Below are positions 6,077-34,997 of a stretch of DNA of 64,000 bases, one piece after another (the stretch's first letter is position 1; the number at the start of each line of letters is the position of its first letter). The stretch lies in IMG/VR virus record IMGVR_UViG_3300037400_003633, positions 22,560 to 86,559 of that record; one strand, written 5' to 3'. The position numbers were made by a program, and so were the translations under genes. This DNA comes from a virus. Lineage: Duplodnaviria; Caudoviricetes. The notes beneath the pieces were generated by a model that was not told the DNA's origin, made no database searches, and saw only the letters and a list, made by a program, of their open reading frames with translations.

Positions 6077-6155
6077 GTGTTTTTCCATGAAAAAATTTGG
6101 TAGATTCGATTTTTTTATGTAATTTTGCCATGTCAAACAATAAACAATAAGAGTT

Positions 6156-8771: not shown

Positions 8772-9056
8772 ATGGAAACAATAGTAATCAAAGGTGTCAA
8801 ATGTTTGCTTCCTTGCAAGGTGTTATCACTTGGTCTGGATATGCAGTGCCATCATGTTATTACAAAAAGCACAATACTTTCTGTGAACGAGTCAGAAGAT
8901 AAACTTATCATTGAGAATGATGGCATAAAGATTCGTTTACGCATGAATGACTTAAATGACTTTTATCCAGATACTACGGAGAACTATAATATTCTGAAAT
9001 CGCAATGTGATGAAGAATATAGCCAGTGGCATAATAGAATTGTGAAAAATAATTAA
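8772..9056 (+). CDS. hypothetical protein
   Basis: start corrected to ATG 8772 downstream of promoter 8712-8742. Confidence 0.75.
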   Translation: METIVIKGVKCLLPCKVLSLGLDMQCHHVITKSTILSVNESEDKLIIENDGIKIRLRMNDLNDFYPDTTENYNILKSQCDEEYSQWHNRIVKNN

Positions 9057-10744: not shown

Positions 10745-10824
10745 TATCATATTGTAAGATTCGTGATTTGTGTTTTTCATGGTAGTGCCATTCCAGTCAG
10801 TGATGATAGGGGTGGCTTTTTTTT
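10745..10824 (+). ncRNA. candidate antisense-TIR small RNA D with terminator
   Basis: TAT-CAT-ATTGTAAGATTCGTGATTTGTGTTTTT then GCCATTCC..GTGA..GGGGTGGC + T-run. Confidence 0.45.
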
Positions 10825-12281: not shown

Positions 12282-12319
12282 ACGTTACTTTTTTTAAATC
12301 ACAATATTTTTGAAGCCAT

Positions 12320-12355
12320 GACTGGTTGTCTGTGAAGATAGCCAGTTATTTTTTT
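12320..12355 (+). terminator. GNRA-loop terminator
   Basis: ACTGGTTGTCT-GTGA-AGATAGCCAGT + T-run. Confidence 0.75.
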
Positions 12356-14053: not shown

Positions 14054-14296
14054 ATGGGATTATTCTTCAATGAAGACAGAAAGACCTATTGCGGAACTTA
14101 TAAGGGGTTCAGAGTATATGGTTTCGGCTGTATGATAGGCAACAACTGGTATGGGGATTATTACATTACTATTCCTCGTGGAGAATCAAAACGACAGATG
14201 AAAGTAAAAGACAGCGTATGTCGCTCTATTGAAGCACTAAAGCAGTATGTGGATAGTCATCTGACAGAACTACAACAGCAGGCTGGACTTAAATAA
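14054..14296 (+). CDS. hypothetical protein
   Basis: ORF track. Confidence 0.7.
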   Translation: MGLFFNEDRKTYCGTYKGFRVYGFGCMIGNNWYGDYYITIPRGESKRQMKVKDSVCRSIEALKQYVDSHLTELQQQAGLK

Positions 14297-16926: not shown

Positions 16927-17002
16927 AGCGATTTCAATTCTTCTGATTTATTCATTTTGCATTTACCCAGTGGCTGTCGGGAGACACCTGCTGGGCTTTT
17001 TT
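16927..17002 (+). ncRNA. candidate antisense small RNA F with GNRA terminator
   Basis: reverse complement AAATGCAAA-ATG-AAT-AAA-TCA-GAA-GAA-TTG; hairpin CCCAG..GGGA..CTGGG + T-run. Confidence 0.35.
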
Positions 17003-19377: not shown

Positions 19378-19455
19378 GTTTTCTTTCTAAACCATAATGA
19401 TAATTTTAAATGATGTTAAAGTTTGGGGTAGTCTTTTGGCTATCCCGACTTTTTT
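19378..19455 (+). ncRNA. candidate antisense-TIR small RNA G with terminator
   Basis: AAAC-CAT-AATGATAATTTTAAATGATGTTAAAGT then TTGGGGTAGTC/GGCTATCCCGA hairpin + T-run. Confidence 0.55.
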
Positions 19456-21768: not shown

Positions 21769-22278
21769 ATGGTAAACAAAGACAAAGTAAGGCAGATTTT
21801 CAGTATTGAACTATTGGAGGACAATGCCCAATATTTCAATCATTATACTGATATGATTAAGTGCGGTCATCCCTGGAACGTTGTGTGCGAGTTAAGAAAG
21901 GTCAGCGAAAACGCAGAGTCAGACCTTGACCCTTACACCTATGAGCAGATACTGGAGAGTGCCAAACAATTTAATGAGCGTATCGTATTCGACAATGGTG
22001 AATACTTGCTGACTGCCAATGACGCTATCATAGTCCTTTACCAGTATGGTGATGTGGACGTATACGACTGGACTGGAGATAAACTGGAAATAAACGATGA
22101 AGTTATATGGCTCGACCCCGATGATGATGCAAGAGATTTACGCAGGGTGTGGACTATCTATGATATAGTTAACGAAGAACTGGTTAAGATTGCTGACGAT
22201 GCATCAGAAGCAGAGGTTGCACCAAATGAACTGGTTAAAGCCAGTAACGTGCTACACGTTGACATCATAATCAAATAG
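21769..22278 (+). CDS. hypothetical protein, C-terminal SH3-like segment
   Basis: ORF track; LEINDEVIW...WTIYDI...VKI pattern. Confidence 0.75.
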   Translation: MVNKDKVRQIFSIELLEDNAQYFNHYTDMIKCGHPWNVVCELRKVSENAESDLDPYTYEQILESAKQFNERIVFDNGEYLLTANDAIIVLYQYGDVDVYDWTGDKLEINDEVIWLDPDDDARDLRRVWTIYDIVNEELVKIADDASEAEVAPNELVKASNVLHVDIIIK

Positions 22279-22294
22279 ACTTAAATAAGTACAA
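22278..22294 (+). promoter_or_regulatory. GACTTAAATAAGTACAA motif, copy 3
   Basis: exact 17-mer; TATATG at 22300; directly upstream of candidate sRNA H. Confidence 0.7.
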
Positions 22295-22307
22295 AGTACT
22301 ATATGAA

Positions 22308-22385
22308 CTAGAGCTTTGTCATACTATCAATATTTTAAATGAATAAGTAAACCAGTATTAGTCGTGAGATTGGTACTGGTTTTAT
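22308..22385 (+). ncRNA. candidate antisense-TIR small RNA H with GNRA terminator
   Basis: GCTTTGT-CAT-ACTATCAATATTTTAAATGAATAAGT then AACCAGTATTAGTC-GTGA-GATTGGTACTGGTT + T-run. Confidence 0.6.
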
Positions 22386-22394
22386 TATATACTG

Positions 22395-22411
22395 GACTTA
22401 AATAAGTACAA
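22395..22411 (+). promoter_or_regulatory. GACTTAAATAAGTACAA motif, copy 4
   Basis: exact 17-mer. Confidence 0.7.
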
Positions 22412-22476
22412 ATACTCTATATTCTTACACATTAAATAACTGGATAGATTTTATTTCACCTTATATAATATGTGCG

Positions 22477-22960
22477 CCAGTATAATATATGACAATATAT
22501 GTTGTGCGTGTATGTTTCACGTGAAACGTATAGAATTTATTCATGTAAATCCATACGCCTATATACGTGTATATGCACCAGTATAGCACATTACACCAGT
22601 ATAGACCAGCACATGTACTACAACCTATACCAGTTGATTCACGTATCTGCACCAGTTGGCATACGCCAGTACAGTGAGCATAACAGACCAGTTTCTCCTG
22701 ACAGACAAGCCACGATAATCAGGCTATCAGGAATCACATTGAGGACTGTACGCCAGTGTGTATATACGCACAGGTTATTTATATACCCCTTTATATTTCC
22801 CCAGACTGATTTACCCGCTGTAAAGATTTTTTACCACTGTAAATTGCATATAACTATATAGGGCTACTGGTTGTAAAGATTTATTATTTTCCCAGTATCT
22901 TTTGTTTGGCTACCAGTTGCCAGTTGTACCAGTCACCAGTAATCCAGTAAAAACACTGGT
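22477..22960. repeat. non-coding CCAGT cluster
   Basis: 14 CCAGT copies on + between 22477 and 22948. Confidence 0.8.
22818..22885 (+). repeat. about 70-bp imperfect repeat, copy 1 (TGTAAAGATT...GCATATAACTATATAG...TGTAAAGA)
   Basis: second copy at about 26098-26168. Confidence 0.65.
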
Positions 22961-23065
22961 TTGTGAACAGATGTTAATAAATTAAAACAAATTGGAAAAT
23001 ATTTGCAGGAATCAATAAAAGTCGCTACATTTGCACCCAGTTATTTATCATTTAAAATTAAAAGT

Positions 23066-24571
23066 ATGGCAAACATGAATTTTTCTCAGTTTCAAATCGC
23101 TATCTTTAACGAAGTTAAGAATGGCACTGGTAATCTTGCAATCAATGCGGTTGCAGGTAGTGGTAAGACCACAACAATCGTTGAATGCTGCAAGTTGCTG
23201 CATCTAAACAAGTATGATGTTAAATTCTTGGCTTTCAACAAGTCTATTGTAGAAGAGTTGTCAGTTAAGATTGGCAATTATGCTGATGTTTCCACCCTGC
23301 ATTCCTTTGGCTTTAATGTTATTAAGAAAATAAATAAAAGAGCCAAGGTTAACAACCGCAAGTATTCCAACGTCATTCGTGATATGGTTGATAGCAACAA
23401 CAAAAACTTTGTCGCTATCGTTAACAATGCCAGTAAGTTGTTTAACCTTTGTCGTGTTAACCTTATCAAGGCTGATAACATAACCGCTATCAATGCCATT
23501 TGTGACGAACACTCTATCGTTGTACTGGATAACGAAATCAGTATCGTTAACTCCCTGCTAAAGGATTGCTATATACTGGATAACGATAATCCCGAAGTTG
23601 ATTTCACCGATATGCTTGTCCTGCCTTTGGCATATCGTCGCCATATTCCTGCCTACAAGTTTGTCTTTATTGACGAATGCCAAGACCTTAACGCTGCACA
23701 ACGTGAGTTGATGCTTGCTGCTGCTGCAAAAGGTCGTTTTATTGCGGTTGGTGATAGAAACCAAGCAATCAATGGTTTTGCAGGTGCTGACTGCAATTCT
23801 TTCGATAAGATTGCAACCCTGCCAAATACCAAGGAGTTGCCATTGTCAGTTAACTATCGTTGTGGCAAATCTATGATTGCACTGGCACAACAAATCGTGC
23901 CACAAATACAAGCCCACGACAAGGCAATAGAGGGAGTTGTTGCTCATACCAATGAGATTACCTTAGACCTTTTCAAGGCTAATGATATGGTGCTTTGTCG
24001 CTCCACTGCTCCACTGGTTGCAATGTGTCTTAAACTGATACAAGCAGGTGTAACCGCTATCGTTAAGGGTCGTGACATTGCTGATGGGTTAATTAACACC
24101 ATTGAGAAGTCCAAGGCTAAGACCATTAAAGGGTTTGAATCTTGGGTAGAGATTGAAAAGGCAAAGGTCGTTAAGGACATCTGCAAGAAAGATAACATTA
24201 CACCTGCCGAAGCAGAGGAAACTGGACGTTATATAGCCTTTATGGATAGAATGAACTGCATTCTTACCATTGGTGAAAACGTTAACAAACTGGATGACGT
24301 TAAGGCTTACATTCAGCAGATTTTCAGTGATGATAAGATTAACAATGCCGTAACACTTTCAACGGCTCACAAGTCCAAAGGACTGGAATCGGATAGAGTT
24401 GTTATCCTGCTCCCCGAAAAGTTACCACTGACTTGGAAACACCAGTTAGAATGGCAATATCAGCAAGAGTTAAACTTGAAGTACGTTGCACTGACACGAG
24501 CCAAAAAAGAACTGGTTTTCGCTGACACCAGTTTGGCTGACCTGCTGAAAGTCAAGTTCAACAACAAGTAA
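23066..24571 (+). CDS. UvrD/Rep-like superfamily I helicase
   Basis: AVAGSGKT, FIDECQD, VGDRNQAINGFAGAD, LSVNYRC, STAHKSKGLE, YVALTRAK; start corrected to ATG 23066. Confidence 0.9.
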   Translation: MANMNFSQFQIAIFNEVKNGTGNLAINAVAGSGKTTTIVECCKLLHLNKYDVKFLAFNKSIVEELSVKIGNYADVSTLHSFGFNVIKKINKRAKVNNRKYSNVIRDMVDSNNKNFVAIVNNASKLFNLCRVNLIKADNITAINAICDEHSIVVLDNEISIVNSLLKDCYILDNDNPEVDFTDMLVLPLAYRRHIPAYKFVFIDECQDLNAAQRELMLAAAAKGRFIAVGDRNQAINGFAGADCNSFDKIATLPNTKELPLSVNYRCGKSMIALAQQIVPQIQAHDKAIEGVVAHTNEITLDLFKANDMVLCRSTAPLVAMCLKLIQAGVTAIVKGRDIADGLINTIEKSKAKTIKGFESWVEIEKAKVVKDICKKDNITPAEAEETGRYIAFMDRMNCILTIGENVNKLDDVKAYIQQIFSDDKINNAVTLSTAHKSKGLESDRVVILLPEKLPLTWKHQLEWQYQQELNLKYVALTRAKKELVFADTSLADLLKVKFNNK

Positions 24572-24605: not shown

Positions 24606-24714
24606 AGTGCTTAAAACTTTTTTCTTAAAAAAGCTTAAAATATTTGGTAGTATCAAAATAATACCTTATTTTTGTACCCGAAATAAGTTTATTAATCATT
24701 TAAAATTAAGCATT

Positions 24715-25464
24715 ATGAAACATCAATTAAGTTCAATCGTGTTCGGTAAGGGAGTTGCTAACAATGTAGAGCGCACAAGTGACGTTGCTGCTTATTTGGC
24801 TATGATTGCCAACTTTAAGCCACTGACCATTGAAGAAGAAATCGAACTTGCCTATCGCATCCAAAATGGTGACAAGGCAGCAAAGGACACTCTGGTTAAT
24901 CACAATCTTCGTGCTGTTGTTTCTATCGCTAAGAGTTATTCCTATTGTGGCGGTTGTCTTTCCCTGCTTGACCTTATCAATGAGGGAAACCAAGGACTTA
25001 TCGAAGCAGCCGACCTTTATGACCCAACAATCGGCACTAAGTTTATGAGTTTTGCCGTTTCTTTCGTCCGCAAGTACATACTTGATGCACTGACCCACAA
25101 ATCAAGAATGGTAGCCGACTACCATAAGGACACGCCAAACCGACATTCATCACTTGATGCACCAACCAATGACGATGCAGACACCACATTAGGCGACATC
25201 CTTTGCACATCAGTTGATGCAGAAGTTAGTCTTAACGACTCCCTTTCTACCGACTTGCTCCGAGTGCTTAACTCAATCCTGCAACCCAAGGAAGTAACAA
25301 TCATTTGCACTATCTACGGAATAGGCACAACCCAAATGAGTAGAAAGACCATTGCAGAGAAAATGAATAAGACCGATGAACGCATCCGACAAATCATTGA
25401 GGGCGCAATAATCAAAGTACGAAAGAACGACCAAGCAATGACCCTGCTAATGAAATATATCTAA
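24715..25464 (+). CDS. sigma-70 family factor lacking most of region 3
   Basis: region 1.2 (YL..I...KPLTIEEE), 2.1-2.2 (LVNHNLRAVVSIAKSY, DLINEGNQGL), region 4 (T.ERIRQI); start corrected to ATG 24715. Confidence 0.85.
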   Translation: MKHQLSSIVFGKGVANNVERTSDVAAYLAMIANFKPLTIEEEIELAYRIQNGDKAAKDTLVNHNLRAVVSIAKSYSYCGGCLSLLDLINEGNQGLIEAADLYDPTIGTKFMSFAVSFVRKYILDALTHKSRMVADYHKDTPNRHSSLDAPTNDDADTTLGDILCTSVDAEVSLNDSLSTDLLRVLNSILQPKEVTIICTIYGIGTTQMSRKTIAEKMNKTDERIRQIIEGAIIKVRKNDQAMTLLMKYI

Positions 25465-25536: not shown

Positions 25537-25709
25537 GCCACCATATTTCTATCCTGCAATATATAATAACATGCAAAATATGCACGGAAATAGCGTTTAT
25601 TTCGCTCACAATCGCTTTGTACTATCTTTGTGGTTAACTACCAAGGTAAACCACCAAAAACGCAATACGAGCCATTTATGAACGTTTTTAGCCAGTAACC
25701 AGTACAACA

Positions 25710-25885
25710 AACCAGTCAAGACACCTGATGCCTGACAATCAGGACACCAGTATAAACCAGTTAACAAAACTAACCAGTCAAGACACCTGATGCCTGACAA
25801 TCAGGACACCAGTATAAACCAGTTAACAAAACTAACCAGTCAAGACACCTGATGCCTGACAATCAGGACACCAGTATAAACCAGT
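25710..25885 (+). repeat. 62-bp tandem repeat, about 2.8 copies
   Basis: unit AACCAGTCAAGACACCTGATGCCTGACAATCAGGACACCAGTATAAACCAGTTAACAAAACT; CCAGTC at 25712, 25774, 25836. Confidence 0.9.
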
Positions 25886-26014
25886 AACCAGTTGAACCAA
25901 TAGCCAAATAGATTCGATTCTAAGACGTTTTAAGTGGTTTGGTGATAACTTATCAATCAAACACACTAACAAACCAATGTGAGGGAAACAAAGGGCAAAT
26001 TTCAGCCTTTAATA

Positions 26015-27502: not shown

Positions 27503-27679
27503 TTTTGAACACATATGGTGGCAACAGTTCTTTAAATAAAATTTTGGGAAAAAAATTGGCAAAATTTTAAAAATAGTTATTGAAAACTATTGTTTTTCAT
27601 TGAAACAATATTATATTTTATTACAGTAAAATATTTATTAGTATATCAATTACCACAGAATAAAAAATTCCAGAAAAAC

Positions 27680-29548
27680 ATGAAAGAATATAAAATTTAT
27701 ATTTATGAGTTTCTAAATCAATATTGTTACATTGGTTTGACCAACAATCCTTCAAGGCGTGATGGTGAGCATCGCATAAAGGGTAGTGTGTTTCAGCATT
27801 CTCAAATTTTTGAAGAAGAGATTCCAGAAATGAAAATATTAGAGGAGGGTCTTGATGAATATGAGGCTCAGAAGAGTGAAGAGAACTGGTGTAAATATTA
27901 TGTTGATAATGGATGGACATTGATAAACAAAGCCAAGATGGGTTTGTTTGTTTCTTCATTGGGCGGCAAAGTTATTGAATCATCTAGATGTATTTCTTCA
28001 AGCACTTCAAACGATTTAGAAATAAATTACAAAGTTTGTTTGGAAGAGGCTAAGAAATATGATTATTTATCAGATTTTCGAAAATTCTCGAACAAGTATT
28101 ATACAATGTCTCGTAAATATGGGTGGGATTACGAATGGTTAGAAAAGACTAAACCAATTAATCATGGCACGAAAGAATTATCTTTTGGTGAAATACAGGA
28201 GATTGCATCAAGATACGGGACGAGAAGTGAATTTAGTTTAAATAATCACACTTTATATATGAAATGTTTATCTGATGGTAGTATAGATGAATTATTTCCT
28301 AGAGAAAATAAAACAAGGATTAAAGATTCTGGTTTATACAGTGATGAAGAATTAATGGCGGTTATGTTATCATATAGAACAAAGACTGAATTTTTTAAAG
28401 CTAAGAGTAAGTTGTATAATCTCTGTCGTTTACGTGGTTTATTAGATAAATTTCCCAAAAGGACTAACATTTCTACTGATTGTGGTTCATTGGAAAAAAT
28501 TGGCATCAAAGATTTCTTTCTTAATAATAAAAACATAGTGACTAGTTCCAAATATGGTAAAAAATACATTTTTAACAAAGATGATATGTCTTTATATCAT
28601 GAATATAAGACAATGGTAGCCAAAGTAAGAAAAAAATATGATAAGTATGGTATTTTATGTTATAAAATTGATACGAGTTACGTATGCATTTTTGATATTA
28701 TTAATGAATTTATTTATGGTGGTAAATACAATATTTACAAATTTATTGATGGTGATTTTTCCAGTATTAACTTAGAGAACATTGATAAAGGCATTATTGA
28801 TTTGGATAAATTTTCAAAAATGTCTGAATTGGATACTTTTTTGATAAATGAGCACGGGGAGATTTATTCTACCAGGCATAAAATGATAATGCCGTGTAAC
28901 ATTTTAAATGGTGTTCCATATTTCTGTGGGTTTAAGATAGATAGACTTGTAATCAAATATTTTCACCCAAATTACAGTAATTTAAAGAAATTTGATATAA
29001 TACACAAAGATGGCAATTTATCAAATAATGATATTACCAATTTAGATATTCAGTTATCGGATAGTGGTAGAGGTGTATATAAAAAAAATTTTTTAATTGT
29101 CAAAAACATTGGTGAGACAAATGAGATTTATATTAAAGACTTTAAGAACGACAAAGAATATTTTTTAGGGCTGATAAAAAATGAAAAAGTGATTGATGCT
29201 ATTAGAAGTGAAATTATTGAATATATTTCTAAATTTACAGAAATTAGTGATTGGGTTGGTTCATACCAAGGATTAGAATTTAAGAAGTGGCAAGAAAAGG
29301 ATAAAAAAATAAATATGATATCTATTAGGGTAAATAGTAATGGATGTTATTACTCAGAAGTTCATAAATTATGGAAAAGTAAAATTTATTATAAAGAAAA
29401 GGAATATAGTTTAGGCTATTTTCACACATTTGAAGCTGGAAAGGTTTTATATGAAGAGGCTGTTATGTATATCAAGTATAACAGATTTGAGAAGTGGTAT
29501 AGTAATATAGAATCTCACAGAGAGAGGGTAAAATCTTATTTTGAATGA
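27680..29548 (+). CDS. GIY-YIG homing endonuclease-like multidomain protein (GIY-YIG, helical repeats, HNH-like, AP2-like)
   Basis: YIYEF...YIGLTNNPSRRDGEH; repeated Y.T..EF.......Y units; IIHKDGNLSNNDITNL; WKSKIYYKEKEYSLGYF; start corrected to ATG 27680. Confidence 0.7.
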   Translation: MKEYKIYIYEFLNQYCYIGLTNNPSRRDGEHRIKGSVFQHSQIFEEEIPEMKILEEGLDEYEAQKSEENWCKYYVDNGWTLINKAKMGLFVSSLGGKVIESSRCISSSTSNDLEINYKVCLEEAKKYDYLSDFRKFSNKYYTMSRKYGWDYEWLEKTKPINHGTKELSFGEIQEIASRYGTRSEFSLNNHTLYMKCLSDGSIDELFPRENKTRIKDSGLYSDEELMAVMLSYRTKTEFFKAKSKLYNLCRLRGLLDKFPKRTNISTDCGSLEKIGIKDFFLNNKNIVTSSKYGKKYIFNKDDMSLYHEYKTMVAKVRKKYDKYGILCYKIDTSYVCIFDIINEFIYGGKYNIYKFIDGDFSSINLENIDKGIIDLDKFSKMSELDTFLINEHGEIYSTRHKMIMPCNILNGVPYFCGFKIDRLVIKYFHPNYSNLKKFDIIHKDGNLSNNDITNLDIQLSDSGRGVYKKNFLIVKNIGETNEIYIKDFKNDKEYFLGLIKNEKVIDAIRSEIIEYISKFTEISDWVGSYQGLEFKKWQEKDKKINMISIRVNSNGCYYSEVHKLWKSKIYYKEKEYSLGYFHTFEAGKVLYEEAVMYIKYNRFEKWYSNIESHRERVKSYFE

Positions 29549-30695: not shown

Positions 30696-30758
30696 ATTTT
30701 GGTTAATTCCCCCATTTATTTTTTACATTATATAAATACTTATATATAAATTTTGACT

Positions 30759-33700
30759 ATGATTTATATTAAATTATTTGAAACTCATAATGAGTATGAG
30801 TCTTATGTTGAAAGTGGGTTAACAAGACCAAATCTATCAGTATGTAAAGACATACCAAAAGAGGTACATTATAATCCACGAAGGTGTGAAGAAACGACTT
30901 CATATGAAATAATTGGAGAGCCATCATACCCATCGACTGTTTTAGCTACTGCGACATCTTTTGTAATCAGTTTTGAGTATAAAAGGACTGACATCAATTA
31001 CAGATGCATTAAATCTGTGACTCAAGGCAGTGATTCTGTTGAAGTCATTATAACGGAAAATCCTTCAACTGAAGAAAGGGTTGTCAGTGGAAATTGTAAT
31101 TATCATGGTTTATCAATACCATATAGTGTTACTCAAGAAGGGTTATCTTATTCAGAAAGTTATTTGACATTTGATGTATTAACTTCAGGAACTATAAATT
31201 GGGTATCACAAAGTGGCGTAACTAAGACCATTTCATACAGTAAAGATTATGGTGAAACTTGGGTTGAAATAACGTCATCAGCAGATGGGTCTGCCATTAA
31301 TGTGAATGCTGGTGACAAATTATTGATTAAGGGTAACAATGACCAATATTCTATCGCTAAAGATGCTGGTTCTCGTTTTAGCGGGGATACTGCAAGATAT
31401 GACGTATATGGTAATATAATGTCTCTTATTGGTGGTGATAATTTTAAGAGTCTCAAGTCATTCAACGGAAAAACATGGGTATTTCATAACTTATTCAACG
31501 GTTCTGGTATAAAGTCAGCAGAGAATTTAATATTGCCAGTAACTGAATTGACTGAATGTTGTTATCGTGCTATGTTTGCTGGTCTTTCAAATAATACTGG
31601 TGATAAGATATTAACTAAAGCTCCAAAAATTATTCCAGCAACTACAATGGCAGTAAGTGCATGTTGCTACATGTTCCAAAATACGCTTATAACAGTTGCA
31701 CCTGAACTTCCATGTAATGTATTGGCAGATTATTGTTATTACAGGATGTTTTTCACTTCAAGTATAAATTACTTGAAATGTTTAGCAACAGATATTTCTG
31801 CGACTCAGTGTACATATGAATGGTGTAGAACAGTACCAAAAACAGGTACATTCATTAAGCATCCATCAATGAATGATTGGGCAATAAACGATAAAAGTGG
31901 AATCCCACCAACTGATTGGACTGTAATAGACGATGTTTATGAAAAGTCAAACAGAAGCCTTAACACCTGGACATATGACAATAATGAAATTGAAGTGCCG
32001 TATTCCATCAATGCAGTAGACGGTCATTCAGCAAGTTATGCAAAGGGTACATTTGATTTTGAAACAAGTGTTAACCTTGATGAGTCTCAGCCAACTTATT
32101 TATGGTTTCAGCATGCAGACCAAACAGCAGACATCTATGTGGATGATACGAAGGTAGAAACCCACTGGGGAGGATACAATGCATTTTTTACTGACATATC
32201 AAATCATGTTCATAGTGGTACTAACGAAATAAGAGTTTCATTGTGTAATACAACAAGAAATACACTTGCTCCAGCATCTGGTGATTTCAATTTCAATGCT
32301 ACGTTGGGTAAGGTTAAACTATTAACAAGTCCTGTATTACCATCAATGAATTATGGCTATGATGGATTCCACATCACATCAACTGTATCTTCAGCGTCTG
32401 CGACAATCAATGTTAAGACAAGCATACCAACAGGTGCAACTGTTGTGTGTAGTATCAGTGGCACTAACTGTAATTACAGTGAAACTAGTGCAAGCACTGG
32501 TTCTGAAATGATATTCACGACAACTATTGCAAATCCTCATCTTTGGAATGGTACAATTGACCCATATTTGTATATTGTAAAACTTGATGTATATTATAAT
32601 GATGAATTATATCATAGTTACACAAGACCTTATGGATTGAGATTCTATGAATATGTAATAAATGATACTGTAAAATATGGTACGGTATCTAATCCTTACA
32701 CAGGTTTCTTGCTTAATGGACAGCCATATCTATTGAGAGGTGTTTGTATGCATGATGACGTTGAAGGAAGGGCAAATGCATTGTTGGATAGTGACTACGT
32801 ACAAGAGTTCAATATAATTCAAGAACTTGGATGTAATTTCTTACGTCTTGCTCACTATCCTCATCCAAAGGAGGTATATGACAAGTGTGACGAATTAGGT
32901 ATAGTTGTACAGACTGAAGTACCTTGTGTTGATAAACTACAAATGTCATTACCATCTGATTACTATGAGCACTTGAACGTACAATATGCAGATATGGTTA
33001 ATCAGCATTATAACCACCCATGTATTATGTTCTGGGGACTAGGCAATGAGGCTAAAATTACTGATAGTGACGAAGGTAGGGAGTTTGCCAAAACCAAGCT
33101 TGAAGGTTATACAGCATTAATAAAAAATCTTGATTCAGAACGTTTGGTTGGTATTGTTGCACACGCCCTTATTGACCCAAGTTCATATTTCGGAAATCCA
33201 GATATTGATTGGTTCGGATGCAACCATTATGTTGGATGGTATCAAAGTAGAACATCAAGAAATCCTTCATCTGTTATAAACCGTTGCCTATCAAGTACAA
33301 CTACAGAGTTAGGAAAAGCATTTGCATTATCAGAATATGGAGCTGGTGGCACACAAAATTGTCATTCTGAAACACCAAGTGATACAACTGATAAAGCATC
33401 AGCTGGAGCTAGACATGATATAGAATATCAAATGTGGATACATGAAGGACATATTGCTGCAATTAGAAATTATCCACAACTTATATTTACATCATTATGG
33501 CAATTATTCGATATTGCAGTGTCTTCCAGGGATGAAGGATATACTATATGTATAGACGGAGAAAATACATATATTGACGACAATTTGAGATACATAAATG
33601 ACAAAGGTATTGTGGAAAGAGACCACACAACCAAAAAAGATACATTCTATTTGTATAAGGCTGAGTGGAATACTGTTGATACATTTGTACACATTTGCGG

Positions 33701-34997
33701 AAAAAGTTTCTCAAAGACAACAAATAGGGTAATAAAATGTTATACAAATGAAAGTGGTACGTTTACGCTGAAAGTAAACAATAACGTAGTAGCCACAGCA
33801 ACATCATCAAATCATATTGTAACGTTTGCAGCACAGAATTTCAATAATGGTGATGTAATAGTAGTTGAAGGAAATACTACATCTGACACATTTACATTTA
33901 TTTGTTCTCCAACAAGTACATATGAAATAGTAGGAACTCCTTCATACCCAAGTACAATTGAAGGTGATGATGTATCATTTGATATAACAGTTAATTACAG
34001 AAGGAGTGATACGGATTCAGCTTGTACAGAAACTGTAACAACTGGAACTGATATAATAACTGTTGAATGTGGTGAAAACCCAAGTACTACTGATAGTAGG
34101 GCTATAAGTGGTACTGTTGATTATCACGGTAACACCATTGAATATGATGTGACACAAGATGTTGGTGGCTTCAAGTTTAGAGGGGTATATGATGATAGTT
34201 CAATAAATAAAGTAGCCTGTGACAATAACCCAACATTAACATCAGGAGAAACAAAGCCTAACGGATACACAGCATCTGCAATGACATCGGCAGAAATAGG
34301 AAATTGTGTAACAACAATAGGAGCTGATACGTTCAGAGATTGTAGCGGATTAACAAGTGTAACAATACCAACAAGCGTTACAAGCATCGGAGATAATGCT
34401 ATAAGAAGTTGCACATCATTAAAATCTGTAACAATTCCAGGAAGTGTAACAAGTATAGGTTCAGCTGCATTCCGTTTCTCTACAGGGCTTACAAGCATAA
34501 GCATACCTGACAGTGTAACAAGTATCGGTAACGAAGCTTTCAGCTACTGTTATAGCCTTAAAAACACAACAATAGGTAGCGGTATAACAACTATCAGTGA
34601 AAGTGCATTCTATAATTGTAGAAAACTTGCAAGTATAACAATTCCAAGCAATGTTACAAGTATCAGTGATAATGCGTTCAGAGATTGTAGCGTATTAACA
34701 AGTGTAACAATACCAACAAGTGTTACAAGCATCGGAGATAGGGCATTCTATAATTGTAAAGCACTTACAAGTATTACAATCCCTGATAGTGTTACAAGTA
34801 TTGGTGGTAGTGCTTTCAATACTTGCAGTGCTCTCACAAGCGTGACAGTTAATGCTGTAACACCTCCAACACTTGGAACTTCAGTATTCAACACAACCAA
34901 TGACTGCCCAATATATGTTCCGAGTGGTAGTGTAAGTGCATATAAGTCAGCAACCAATTGGAGCAATTATGCAAGTAGAATACAAGCAATACCTTAA
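30759..34997 (+). CDS. putative tail/fibre-associated protein: BACON-like, LRR-like repeats, glycoside hydrolase family 2, BACON-like, BspA-type LRR
   Basis: GH2 motifs LRGVCMHDD, FLRLAHYPH, CDELGIVV, NHPCIMFWGLGNE, LSEYGAG; duplicated ENPST..R..SG..YHG..I.Y.VTQ module; TIP.SVTSIG..AF..C repeats. Confidence 0.85.
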   Translation: MIYIKLFETHNEYESYVESGLTRPNLSVCKDIPKEVHYNPRRCEETTSYEIIGEPSYPSTVLATATSFVISFEYKRTDINYRCIKSVTQGSDSVEVIITENPSTEERVVSGNCNYHGLSIPYSVTQEGLSYSESYLTFDVLTSGTINWVSQSGVTKTISYSKDYGETWVEITSSADGSAINVNAGDKLLIKGNNDQYSIAKDAGSRFSGDTARYDVYGNIMSLIGGDNFKSLKSFNGKTWVFHNLFNGSGIKSAENLILPVTELTECCYRAMFAGLSNNTGDKILTKAPKIIPATTMAVSACCYMFQNTLITVAPELPCNVLADYCYYRMFFTSSINYLKCLATDISATQCTYEWCRTVPKTGTFIKHPSMNDWAINDKSGIPPTDWTVIDDVYEKSNRSLNTWTYDNNEIEVPYSINAVDGHSASYAKGTFDFETSVNLDESQPTYLWFQHADQTADIYVDDTKVETHWGGYNAFFTDISNHVHSGTNEIRVSLCNTTRNTLAPASGDFNFNATLGKVKLLTSPVLPSMNYGYDGFHITSTVSSASATINVKTSIPTGATVVCSISGTNCNYSETSASTGSEMIFTTTIANPHLWNGTIDPYLYIVKLDVYYNDELYHSYTRPYGLRFYEYVINDTVKYGTVSNPYTGFLLNGQPYLLRGVCMHDDVEGRANALLDSDYVQEFNIIQELGCNFLRLAHYPHPKEVYDKCDELGIVVQTEVPCVDKLQMSLPSDYYEHLNVQYADMVNQHYNHPCIMFWGLGNEAKITDSDEGREFAKTKLEGYTALIKNLDSERLVGIVAHALIDPSSYFGNPDIDWFGCNHYVGWYQSRTSRNPSSVINRCLSSTTTELGKAFALSEYGAGGTQNCHSETPSDTTDKASAGARHDIEYQMWIHEGHIAAIRNYPQLIFTSLWQLFDIAVSSRDEGYTICIDGENTYIDDNLRYINDKGIVERDHTTKKDTFYLYKAEWNTVDTFVHICGKSFSKTTNRVIKCYTNESGTFTLKVNNNVVATATSSNHIVTFAAQNFNNGDVIVVEGNTTSDTFTFICSPTSTYEIVGTPSYPSTIEGDDVSFDITVNYRRSDTDSACTETVTTGTDIITVECGENPSTTDSRAISGTVDYHGNTIEYDVTQDVGGFKFRGVYDDSSINKVACDNNPTLTSGETKPNGYTASAMTSAEIGNCVTTIGADTFRDCSGLTSVTIPTSVTSIGDNAIRSCTSLKSVTIPGSVTSIGSAAFRFSTGLTSISIPDSVTSIGNEAFSYCYSLKNTTIGSGITTISESAFYNCRKLASITIPSNVTSISDNAFRDCSVLTSVTIPTSVTSIGDRAFYNCKALTSITIPDSVTSIGGSAFNTCSALTSVTVNAVTPPTLGTSVFNTTNDCPIYVPSGSVSAYKSATNWSNYASRIQAIP

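Follow-up and report, generated by a model that had tools for sequence, protein, structure and literature searches.

A candidate small RNA encoded upstream of a phage helicase gene is complementary to the helicase start region in its own genome and in most related lineages

The window analyzed here, i.e., the whole stretch of 64,000 nt, comprises bases 22560–86559 of an 86.5-kb IMG/VR record (IMGVR_UViG_3300037400_003633; CheckV completeness, 29%) and carries on its (+) strand a gene for a superfamily 1 (SF1) helicase. About 750 bp upstream of this gene, on the same strand, lies the element H, which is predicted to specify a short RNA complementary to the helicase start region (Table 1). Relatives that share both the 17-mer motif preceding H and the helicase include contigs of ~410 kb, and the phage of the window was therefore assigned to a jumbo-phage family, most members of which bear rumen-type sample names. 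Judging from the abundance of the promoter pattern TTTG-N17–23-TAnnTTTG (34 matches in the window versus 4.1 expected), the host is probably a member of the Bacteroidota. A megablast search of the region against 50,697 GenBank phage records revealed no near relative among them. For comparison, helicase relatives and their upstream DNA were taken from viral and metagenome collections and treated as eight lineages, namely the window phage with its 99% strain L209; L009; L075; L048; L259; L025/L084; L268; and L212/L213. Helicase identity across the eight ranged from 62% to 99% (99% for strain L209 and 62%–77% for the seven lineages besides the window phage), and a host-type promoter of the above pattern precedes the helicase in seven of them.

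Table 1. Coordinates of H, its predicted target, and the associated signals in the window
Feature	Position	Strand	Remarks
Phage-type 17-mer GACTTAAATAAGTACAA	22278..22294	+	−35-like GACTT, then conserved spacer with dyad ACTTAwwTAAGT
−10-like hexamer TATATG	22300..22305	+	17 nt after GACTT
Predicted H RNA, ~77 nt	22312..22389	+	5′ end placed from the −10-like box
Anti-start block 1, TTTGTCATACT	22315..22325	+	predicted to pair with AGTATGGCAAA; homologous block in relatives changes along with their start sequence
Block 2, ATTTTAAATGA	22332..22342	+	perfect 11-nt complement of TCATTTAAAAT at 23048–23058
Block 3, ATAAGTAA	22343..22350	+	pairs with 23041–23048 in duplex prediction
Terminator-like hairpin and T run	22349..22386	+	15 bp, GTGA loop
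Second 17-mer copy, tandem	22395..22411	+	117 nt downstream of the first; no terminator follows in the window phage
Host-type (Bacteroidota) promoter of the helicase, TTTG-N20-TACATTTG	23002..23033	+	pattern TTTG-N-TAnnTTTG
Predicted H target	23041..23073	+	nearly the entire short 5′ leader and the first 8 nt of the helicase reading frame
SF1 (UvrD/Rep-like) helicase, 501 aa	23066..24571	+	Pfam UvrD-helicase (9e-20), AAA_19, UvrD_C

The 17-mer upstream of H, GACTTAAATAAGTACAA, occurs five times in the window without a mismatch, each time on the (+) strand, and at up to three mismatches it yields seven matches versus 0.58 expected. Across the whole 86.5-kb record there are eight copies at up to two mismatches, again all (+) and inside the (+) strand gene block, and the motif is present in many IMG/VR jumbo-phage contigs. 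Two of the copies (at 14286 and 17309) are located 30–40 nt upstream of the starts of open reading frames (ORFs). At all five window copies, GACTT is followed after 17–18 nt by TATATG, TATGTA, TATGAT, TATATT, or CATATT, and strain L209, which has the same helicase leader, shows the consensus TATAAT exactly where the −10-like box of H was predicted. The 17-mer and its −10-like box thus appear to form a classical sigma-70-like layout, unlike that of the host-type promoters.

Downstream of this putative promoter, the 55 nt past the 17-mer offer no usable reading frame, the only coding capacity in H being ATG-AAC-TAG, and a mini-ORF on the (−) strand beneath H was rejected as coding since it is not conserved (MTKL-stop in the window phage and 12 aa in L009). 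The body of H is predicted to be nearly unstructured (−3.7 kcal/mol) and its terminator to be stable: the hairpin AAACCAGTATTAGTC-GTGA-GATTGGTACTGGTTT at 22349–22382, followed by TATTATAT, forms 15 pairs (−19 kcal/mol) and has a TTTTATT tail. Eight aligned units share this GNRA-loop design, i.e., the loop, 4 bp, a 1 × 1 mismatch, a lower stem of 6–9 bp, and a T run, and the lower stems vary among the units, with pairing kept via compensatory changes on both sides. These hairpins were compared by a loop-anchored pair table; RNAalifold on a MAFFT alignment of the eight units misaligned the loops and missed the terminator. With its stable hairpin, T run, and compensatory stem changes, the 3′ end of H has the makings of an intrinsic (Rho-independent) terminator. 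Rfam gave no match in the window at the gathering score and none in 22200–23100 at E-values up to 1. In terms of sequence features only, H therefore presents a promoter-like motif, a −10-like box, a strong hairpin with a T run, and no ORF. An earlier sequence-only reading of this DNA had described H as preceded by the motif at 22278 and ended by a GTGA-loop terminator, with the helicase behind a host-type promoter, and each of these features was recovered at the positions in Table 1.

We found that block 1 of H pairs across the AUG of the helicase (23063–23073) with one G-U and that the complete predicted duplex comprises 28 pairs, including two G-U, in blocks of 11, 11, and ~7 bp, with a total of −23.3 kcal/mol. 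The hand alignment in the sequence-only reading, which had proposed 11 + 11 + ~7 bp with the helicase start, therefore holds. Energies were calculated by duplexfold and cofold, with accessibility ignored or crudely treated. Among 42-nt windows of the same genome, only 9 of 8,150 (0.11%) pair as well with H (p = 0.0011), and an AUG-anchored helix of equal length occurs at 0.55% of 3,639 genome ATGs (p = 0.0055). By these two measures, the complementarity of H to the helicase start is beyond chance.

That reading had also put forward an energy ranking as a check on the pair, and the outcome was divided. Among the 40 leaders located behind host-type promoters in the 86.5-kb record, the helicase leader ranks first (−26.0 kcal/mol versus −20.2 for that of a sigma factor and −18.0 for the next; −22.0 versus −16.0 for the next when the leaders are trimmed), and it remains first in cofold calculations that include intramolecular folding (ΔΔG, −14.6 versus −13.2 for the next leader). 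Genome-wide the pair did not come first: a scan of both strands of the record (173 kb) in 70-nt windows placed the helicase start at approximately the ninth position among distinct sites (−25.8 versus −27.2 for the best). The H–helicase pair is therefore unusual, yet not unique on energy alone, and the pairing evidence from the single genome is suggestive, not decisive.

In all eight lineages, an H-like unit lies 650–930 bp upstream of the helicase and on its strand: the 17-mer, in identical or closely similar form, is followed by 45–90 nt of body, a GNRA-loop hairpin, and a T run. A second 17-mer often stands in tandem and is kept at 108–128 nt in L009, L075, L209, L268, and L213. The helicase leaders and first codons are not the same from lineage to lineage, and the RNA bodies vary in step with them, being complementary to their own start in most. 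In L009, the RNA of unit 2 (TTTGCTCATAATAA) matches the helicase start TTATTATGAGCAAA through 14 Watson-Crick pairs, and the same sequence in unit 2 of L075 matches TATTATGGGCAAA through 13 pairs, one of them G-U; unit 1 of L075 provides ATAATAGATATT opposite AATATCTATTAT. Two blocks are found in L048, where GCCATATTAT and TTAAACATT in the RNA face ATAATATGGC and AATGTTTAA, respectively, in the helicase start. The match in L084 extends over 28 pairs, from the leader through and across the AUG. That in L268 consists of TTCATTTTTG (10 bp), a bulge, and GCCAT against ATGGCAAAAATGAA, and L259 shows 8 + 6 bp with its own helicase start. In strain L209, an altered body still pairs over 9 + 9 bp with the identical helicase leader. 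The agreement extends to single bases, as an extra base in the L009 start (ATG-A-GCAAA versus ATG-GCAAA in the window phage) is mirrored in the L009 RNA (TTTGC-T-CAT versus TTTG-T-CAT).

When each unit was tested by energy against windows of its genome, p values were 0.0029 for L048, 0.0044 for L025, <0.0002 for L084, 0.031 for L009, 0.025 for L075, and 0.056 for L209, and the AUG-anchored helix test gave p values from 0.0014 to 0.017 in five units. Reassigning RNAs to leaders among the eight lineages, we found that only 3 of 40,320 permutations score as low in summed energy as the cognate assignment (p = 7.4e-5), a value that is strong but not exact and that was unchanged with an alternative choice of units. 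This test used the RNA bodies only; full 260-nt regions gave strong non-cognate duplex scores via the G+C-rich hairpin parts. Since independent drift of unrelated sequences would give no cognate advantage, the pairing of H and its co-variation with the helicase start appear to have been maintained in the relatives, L212/L213 excepted, and such lineage-specific retention of complementarity matches the prediction for a functional antisense regulator.

Strand bias points in the same direction. Computed as (+) strand RNAs, the duplexes are more stable than their opposite-strand versions in 7 of 10 units and about equal in the remaining 3, with a summed advantage of 30 kcal/mol over the 10 units, because the interruptions of the helices are G-U in the (+) sense and A-C in the opposite sense. 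Together with the orientation of the motif and the T run, this wobble asymmetry makes RNA–RNA pairing of two (+) strand transcripts more plausible than a DNA inverted repeat.

We consider it reasonably probable that H is a trans-acting RNA, encoded 750 bp upstream of the helicase on the same strand, that blocks helicase translation. A phage-type promoter of its own would give rise to H as a discrete RNA, and the GNRA-loop hairpin and U run would end the transcript. The helicase mRNA would start ~27 nt before the AUG, from the host-type promoter 750 bp downstream of H, and the unstructured 5′ two-thirds of H, with a seed near the 5′ end, would pair with the helicase leader and the first 8 nt of the frame. 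In the Bacteroidota, ribosomes depend on the start region being A/U-rich and open, and not on a Shine-Dalgarno sequence; with positions from approximately −25 to +8 held in a duplex, the 30S subunit would be expected to be excluded from the start site and less helicase to be made, to which mRNA decay may be added. As H and the helicase would be transcribed from different promoter classes, their ratio could shift during infection. Host-type promoters also precede DNA-metabolism genes on the (−) strand, and for this reason the equation of host-type with early and of motif with late is only an assumption. The transcription of H, the position of its 5′ end, the identity of the sigma factor acting at the motif, the repression, and its timing are all features that we infer from the DNA. 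The sequence-only reading, in which H is a later-phase sRNA that shuts off translation of an early helicase, is supported in part.

Several results weigh against this reading. The −10 partner of the 17-mer is not sharply positioned: among 270 motif instances, TAT is ~2.5-fold enriched at offsets 22–26 but broadly placed, and a fixed −10 box over all instances was accordingly rejected. In addition, part of the 17-mer forms a palindrome (ACTTAwwTAAGT), a feature as compatible with the binding of a dimeric protein to DNA as with a promoter, and the motif may be a protein operator. Approximately eight other genome sites equal or beat the helicase start in raw hybridization energy, the margin over the next leader in cofold is just 1.4 kcal/mol, and both partners are A/T-rich, so short helices come cheaply. 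Among the relatives, the energy test is weak in L268 (p = 0.17) and L259 (p = 0.26), and the match is absent from L212 and L213 (p = 0.64 and 0.82), whose helicases begin with the altered sequence MKK and in which a host-type promoter was not seen. Since the lineages are related, their p values are in part interdependent; unit 2 is nearly the same in two lineages. Finally, in more distant lineages, whose helicases are 52%–55% identical and whose synteny differs, no syntenic H and no H-like match was found within 1.3 kb upstream.

Part of this evidence is what one would expect if H were a short transcript or a mere spacer between promoter and terminator, its likeness to an antisense of the A/T-rich start ATGGCAAA being a functionless product of chance and shared descent. 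A/T-rich sequences do give many helices of 8–10 bp (the 95th percentile of the null is 8–9.5), several other sites score equally, and some lineages are weak or negative. We nevertheless regard this explanation as unlikely, given the permutation result, the independent and different matches in L009, L048, unit 1 of L075, and L084, the persistence of the pairing on the start codon, and the strand asymmetry of the wobble pairs.

A second alternative places the effect in cis, with read-through transcripts from the 17-mer promoters folding the upstream anti-start stretch over the start site, so that only phage-promoter transcripts would be silenced. The second 17-mer has no convincing terminator between it and the helicase, and a transcript from it would include TAAATAACTGG at 22433–22443, a perfect 11-nt complement of 23037–23047 at the 5′ edge of the helicase leader. 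The same-strand upstream placement is kept in all lineages. However, the anti-start blocks precede a strong hairpin and T run in every lineage, both units are terminated in L009 and L075, the intervening 700–800 nt are poorly conserved in sequence, and the helicase has its own proximal promoter, all of which makes silencing in cis quite improbable. That H and the helicase start are the arms of a DNA inverted repeat serving replication, recombination, or protein binding is very unlikely: the arms do flank a block of ~700 bp with a conserved parS-like palindrome and lineage-specific pentamer (CCAGT in the window) arrays, suggestive of a replication/partition cassette, and the H hairpin stem carries the pentamer, but one arm coincides exactly with the start codon and leader and the other is framed by a promoter-like motif and a terminator, the G-U interruptions in the (+) sense favor RNA, protein-bound repeats should keep their sequence rather than co-vary, and a further unit of the window, G, matches the start of a sigma-factor gene 5 kb away and brackets nothing.

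The sigma-70-family gene in question (24715–25464; regions 1.2, 2, and 4) lies just after the helicase, behind a host-type promoter. Its product may be the factor that reads the 17-mer; homologues occur in related contigs, the tie between gene and motif being one of co-occurrence only. The sigma factor was also considered as a conserved second target of H and rejected, since the units of the relatives reach just −4 to −11 kcal/mol with their own sigma leaders, and H pairs with the sigma leader in the window phage only, among the phages compared. The sigma-factor and helicase leaders (24690–24717 and 23044–23068) share the 14-mer ATCATTTAAAATTA, and the 11-mer targeted by block 2 also occurs in the sigma-factor leader. 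Both leaders differ from the stereotyped leader CGTCAAACAATAAAAC...AGAGTTATG of ~20 small genes in the first 21.4 kb of the window; there (1–21500, (+) strand), a near-identical 32-nt host-type promoter cassette (TTTGGTTATTCCAAATATTTTATGTAATTTTG and variants) stands before ~20 short ORFs. In L009 (3215–3232) and L075 (~6085–6101), a host-type −7 box, TAACTTTG, immediately precedes the first 17-mer; transcripts initiated from this box would have their 5′ ends within the 17-mer, so the motif might act as an operator there too.

Among known systems, H in its proposed action most resembles the c4 RNA of phages P1 and P7, which likewise is ~77 nt long. In 1990, Citron and Schuster reportedly described two short, separate complementary blocks with which c4 masks the ribosome-binding region of a phage gene located downstream. 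The predicted H RNA is similar to c4 in size (~77 nt), upstream of its target, on the same strand, and equipped with two blocks (22315–22325 and 22332–22342) directed at a ribosome-binding region; c4 itself is encoded upstream of its target in the operon, on the same strand (PMC8198154). Unlike c4, which is cut from the same operon transcript, H seems to possess a promoter and a terminator of its own, and where c4 controls an antirepressor in a temperate phage, the predicted target of H is a replication-type helicase in a putative Bacteroidota jumbo phage. H shows no sequence or structure homology to c4 and no Rfam C4 match even at E = 1, and it is not a member of the c4 family.

Lambda OOP RNA and P22 sar RNA are cis-antisense phage RNAs that are encoded on the strand opposite to their target and match it perfectly. 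H is proposed, like them, as a short phage RNA lowering phage gene expression by base pairing, but it lies 750 bp away on the same strand and would pair imperfectly in two to three blocks; it does not overlap the helicase leader, and its motif, T run, and wobble asymmetry point to the (+) strand, which sets it apart from cis-antisense RNAs. RNAII of plasmid pMV158, an antisense RNA that serves copy control by blocking the translation of repB, a replication gene, is a countertranscript overlapping its target leader (PMC4485353). As with RNAII, H would be a small RNA beside a putative origin aimed at the start region of a replication gene; unlike RNAII, it is encoded apart from its target, and an origin role of the neighboring repeats is a guess. 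Trans-encoded RNAs whose 5′ seeds occlude start regions include the enterobacterial Hfq-dependent small RNAs (sRNAs) and Bacteroides sRNAs such as GibS. With these, H shares an unstructured 5′ seed, a predicted Rho-independent terminator, and a target window around the start codon, and it differs from them in being phage-borne with a phage target and in the length of its pairing (~28 bp). We know of no Hfq or ProQ homologue in the Bacteroidota and, to our knowledge, very few phage-encoded RNAs regulate genes of their own phage in trans; in the literature that we searched, no such RNA was described for jumbo phages or for phages of the Bacteroidota. H lends itself to direct testing: its predicted target is precise and backed by co-variation, its putative promoter belongs to a defined class, and a gene for a phage sigma factor lies nearby. 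If the proposal is true, it would mean that an uncultured group of gut and rumen phages times a replication gene post-transcriptionally and that start sites independent of a Shine-Dalgarno sequence come under natural antisense control.

H may not be the only RNA of this kind in the window. Unit G (19378–19425) contains CCATAATGATAATTTTAAATGAT and is predicted to pair across the start codons of the sigma factor (−20.9 kcal/mol) and of the gene at 8772 (−21.0 kcal/mol) as well as with the helicase leader (−18.8 kcal/mol). More tentatively, and on balance doubtfully, these elements might make up a jumbo-phage sRNA set (H directed at the helicase; G at the sigma factor and the 8772 gene) that acts as an RNA switch, coupling phage-sigma-dependent transcription to the shut-off of host-sigma-driven genes in a phylum without known sRNA chaperones, and, with the terminator stem being an inverted pair of an origin-type repeat, RNA output could be tied to a repeat-binding replication protein. 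Three more (+) strand hairpins, which match the H terminator in design (GNRA loop and T run), follow non-coding stretches at 10787–10816, 12318–12349, and 16966–16995; no clear single best leader target was found for these units.

The region between H and the helicase holds further elements. A parS-like palindrome, TGTTTCACGTGAAAC(G/A), is located at 22513–22528, ~120 nt after the second 17-mer, and is kept as TGTTYCACGTGAAACA at a similar place in at least eight related lineages, including L009, L025, L084, L259, L268, L212, and L209. Same-strand CCAGT arrays comprise 14 copies in 22470–22950, i.e., between H and the helicase, and 12 copies in 25690–25890, after the sigma gene, compared with a background of ~3.9 per kb in the whole window (both orientations together). 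In the relatives L025, L084, L009, and L075, CCAGC arrays are found in place of CCAGT. The CCAGT/CCAGC arrays have an iteron-like appearance, and an origin may be located there. In the H terminator hairpin, the repeat pentamer of the lineage is present in the lower stem as an inverted pair (ACCAGTA in the window phage), and the equivalent hairpin stems read GCCAGCA in L025/L084 and GCTGG/CCAGC in L009/L075. As DNA, the H hairpin could thus be an additional site for a repeat-binding protein.

Farther downstream, a 652-aa ORF at 27590–29548 shows weak GIY-YIG and HNH matches, both below the Pfam curated cut-offs, and a 1,414-aa protein encoded at 30753–34997 contains glycosyl hydrolase family 2 domains and BspA-type leucine-rich repeats.

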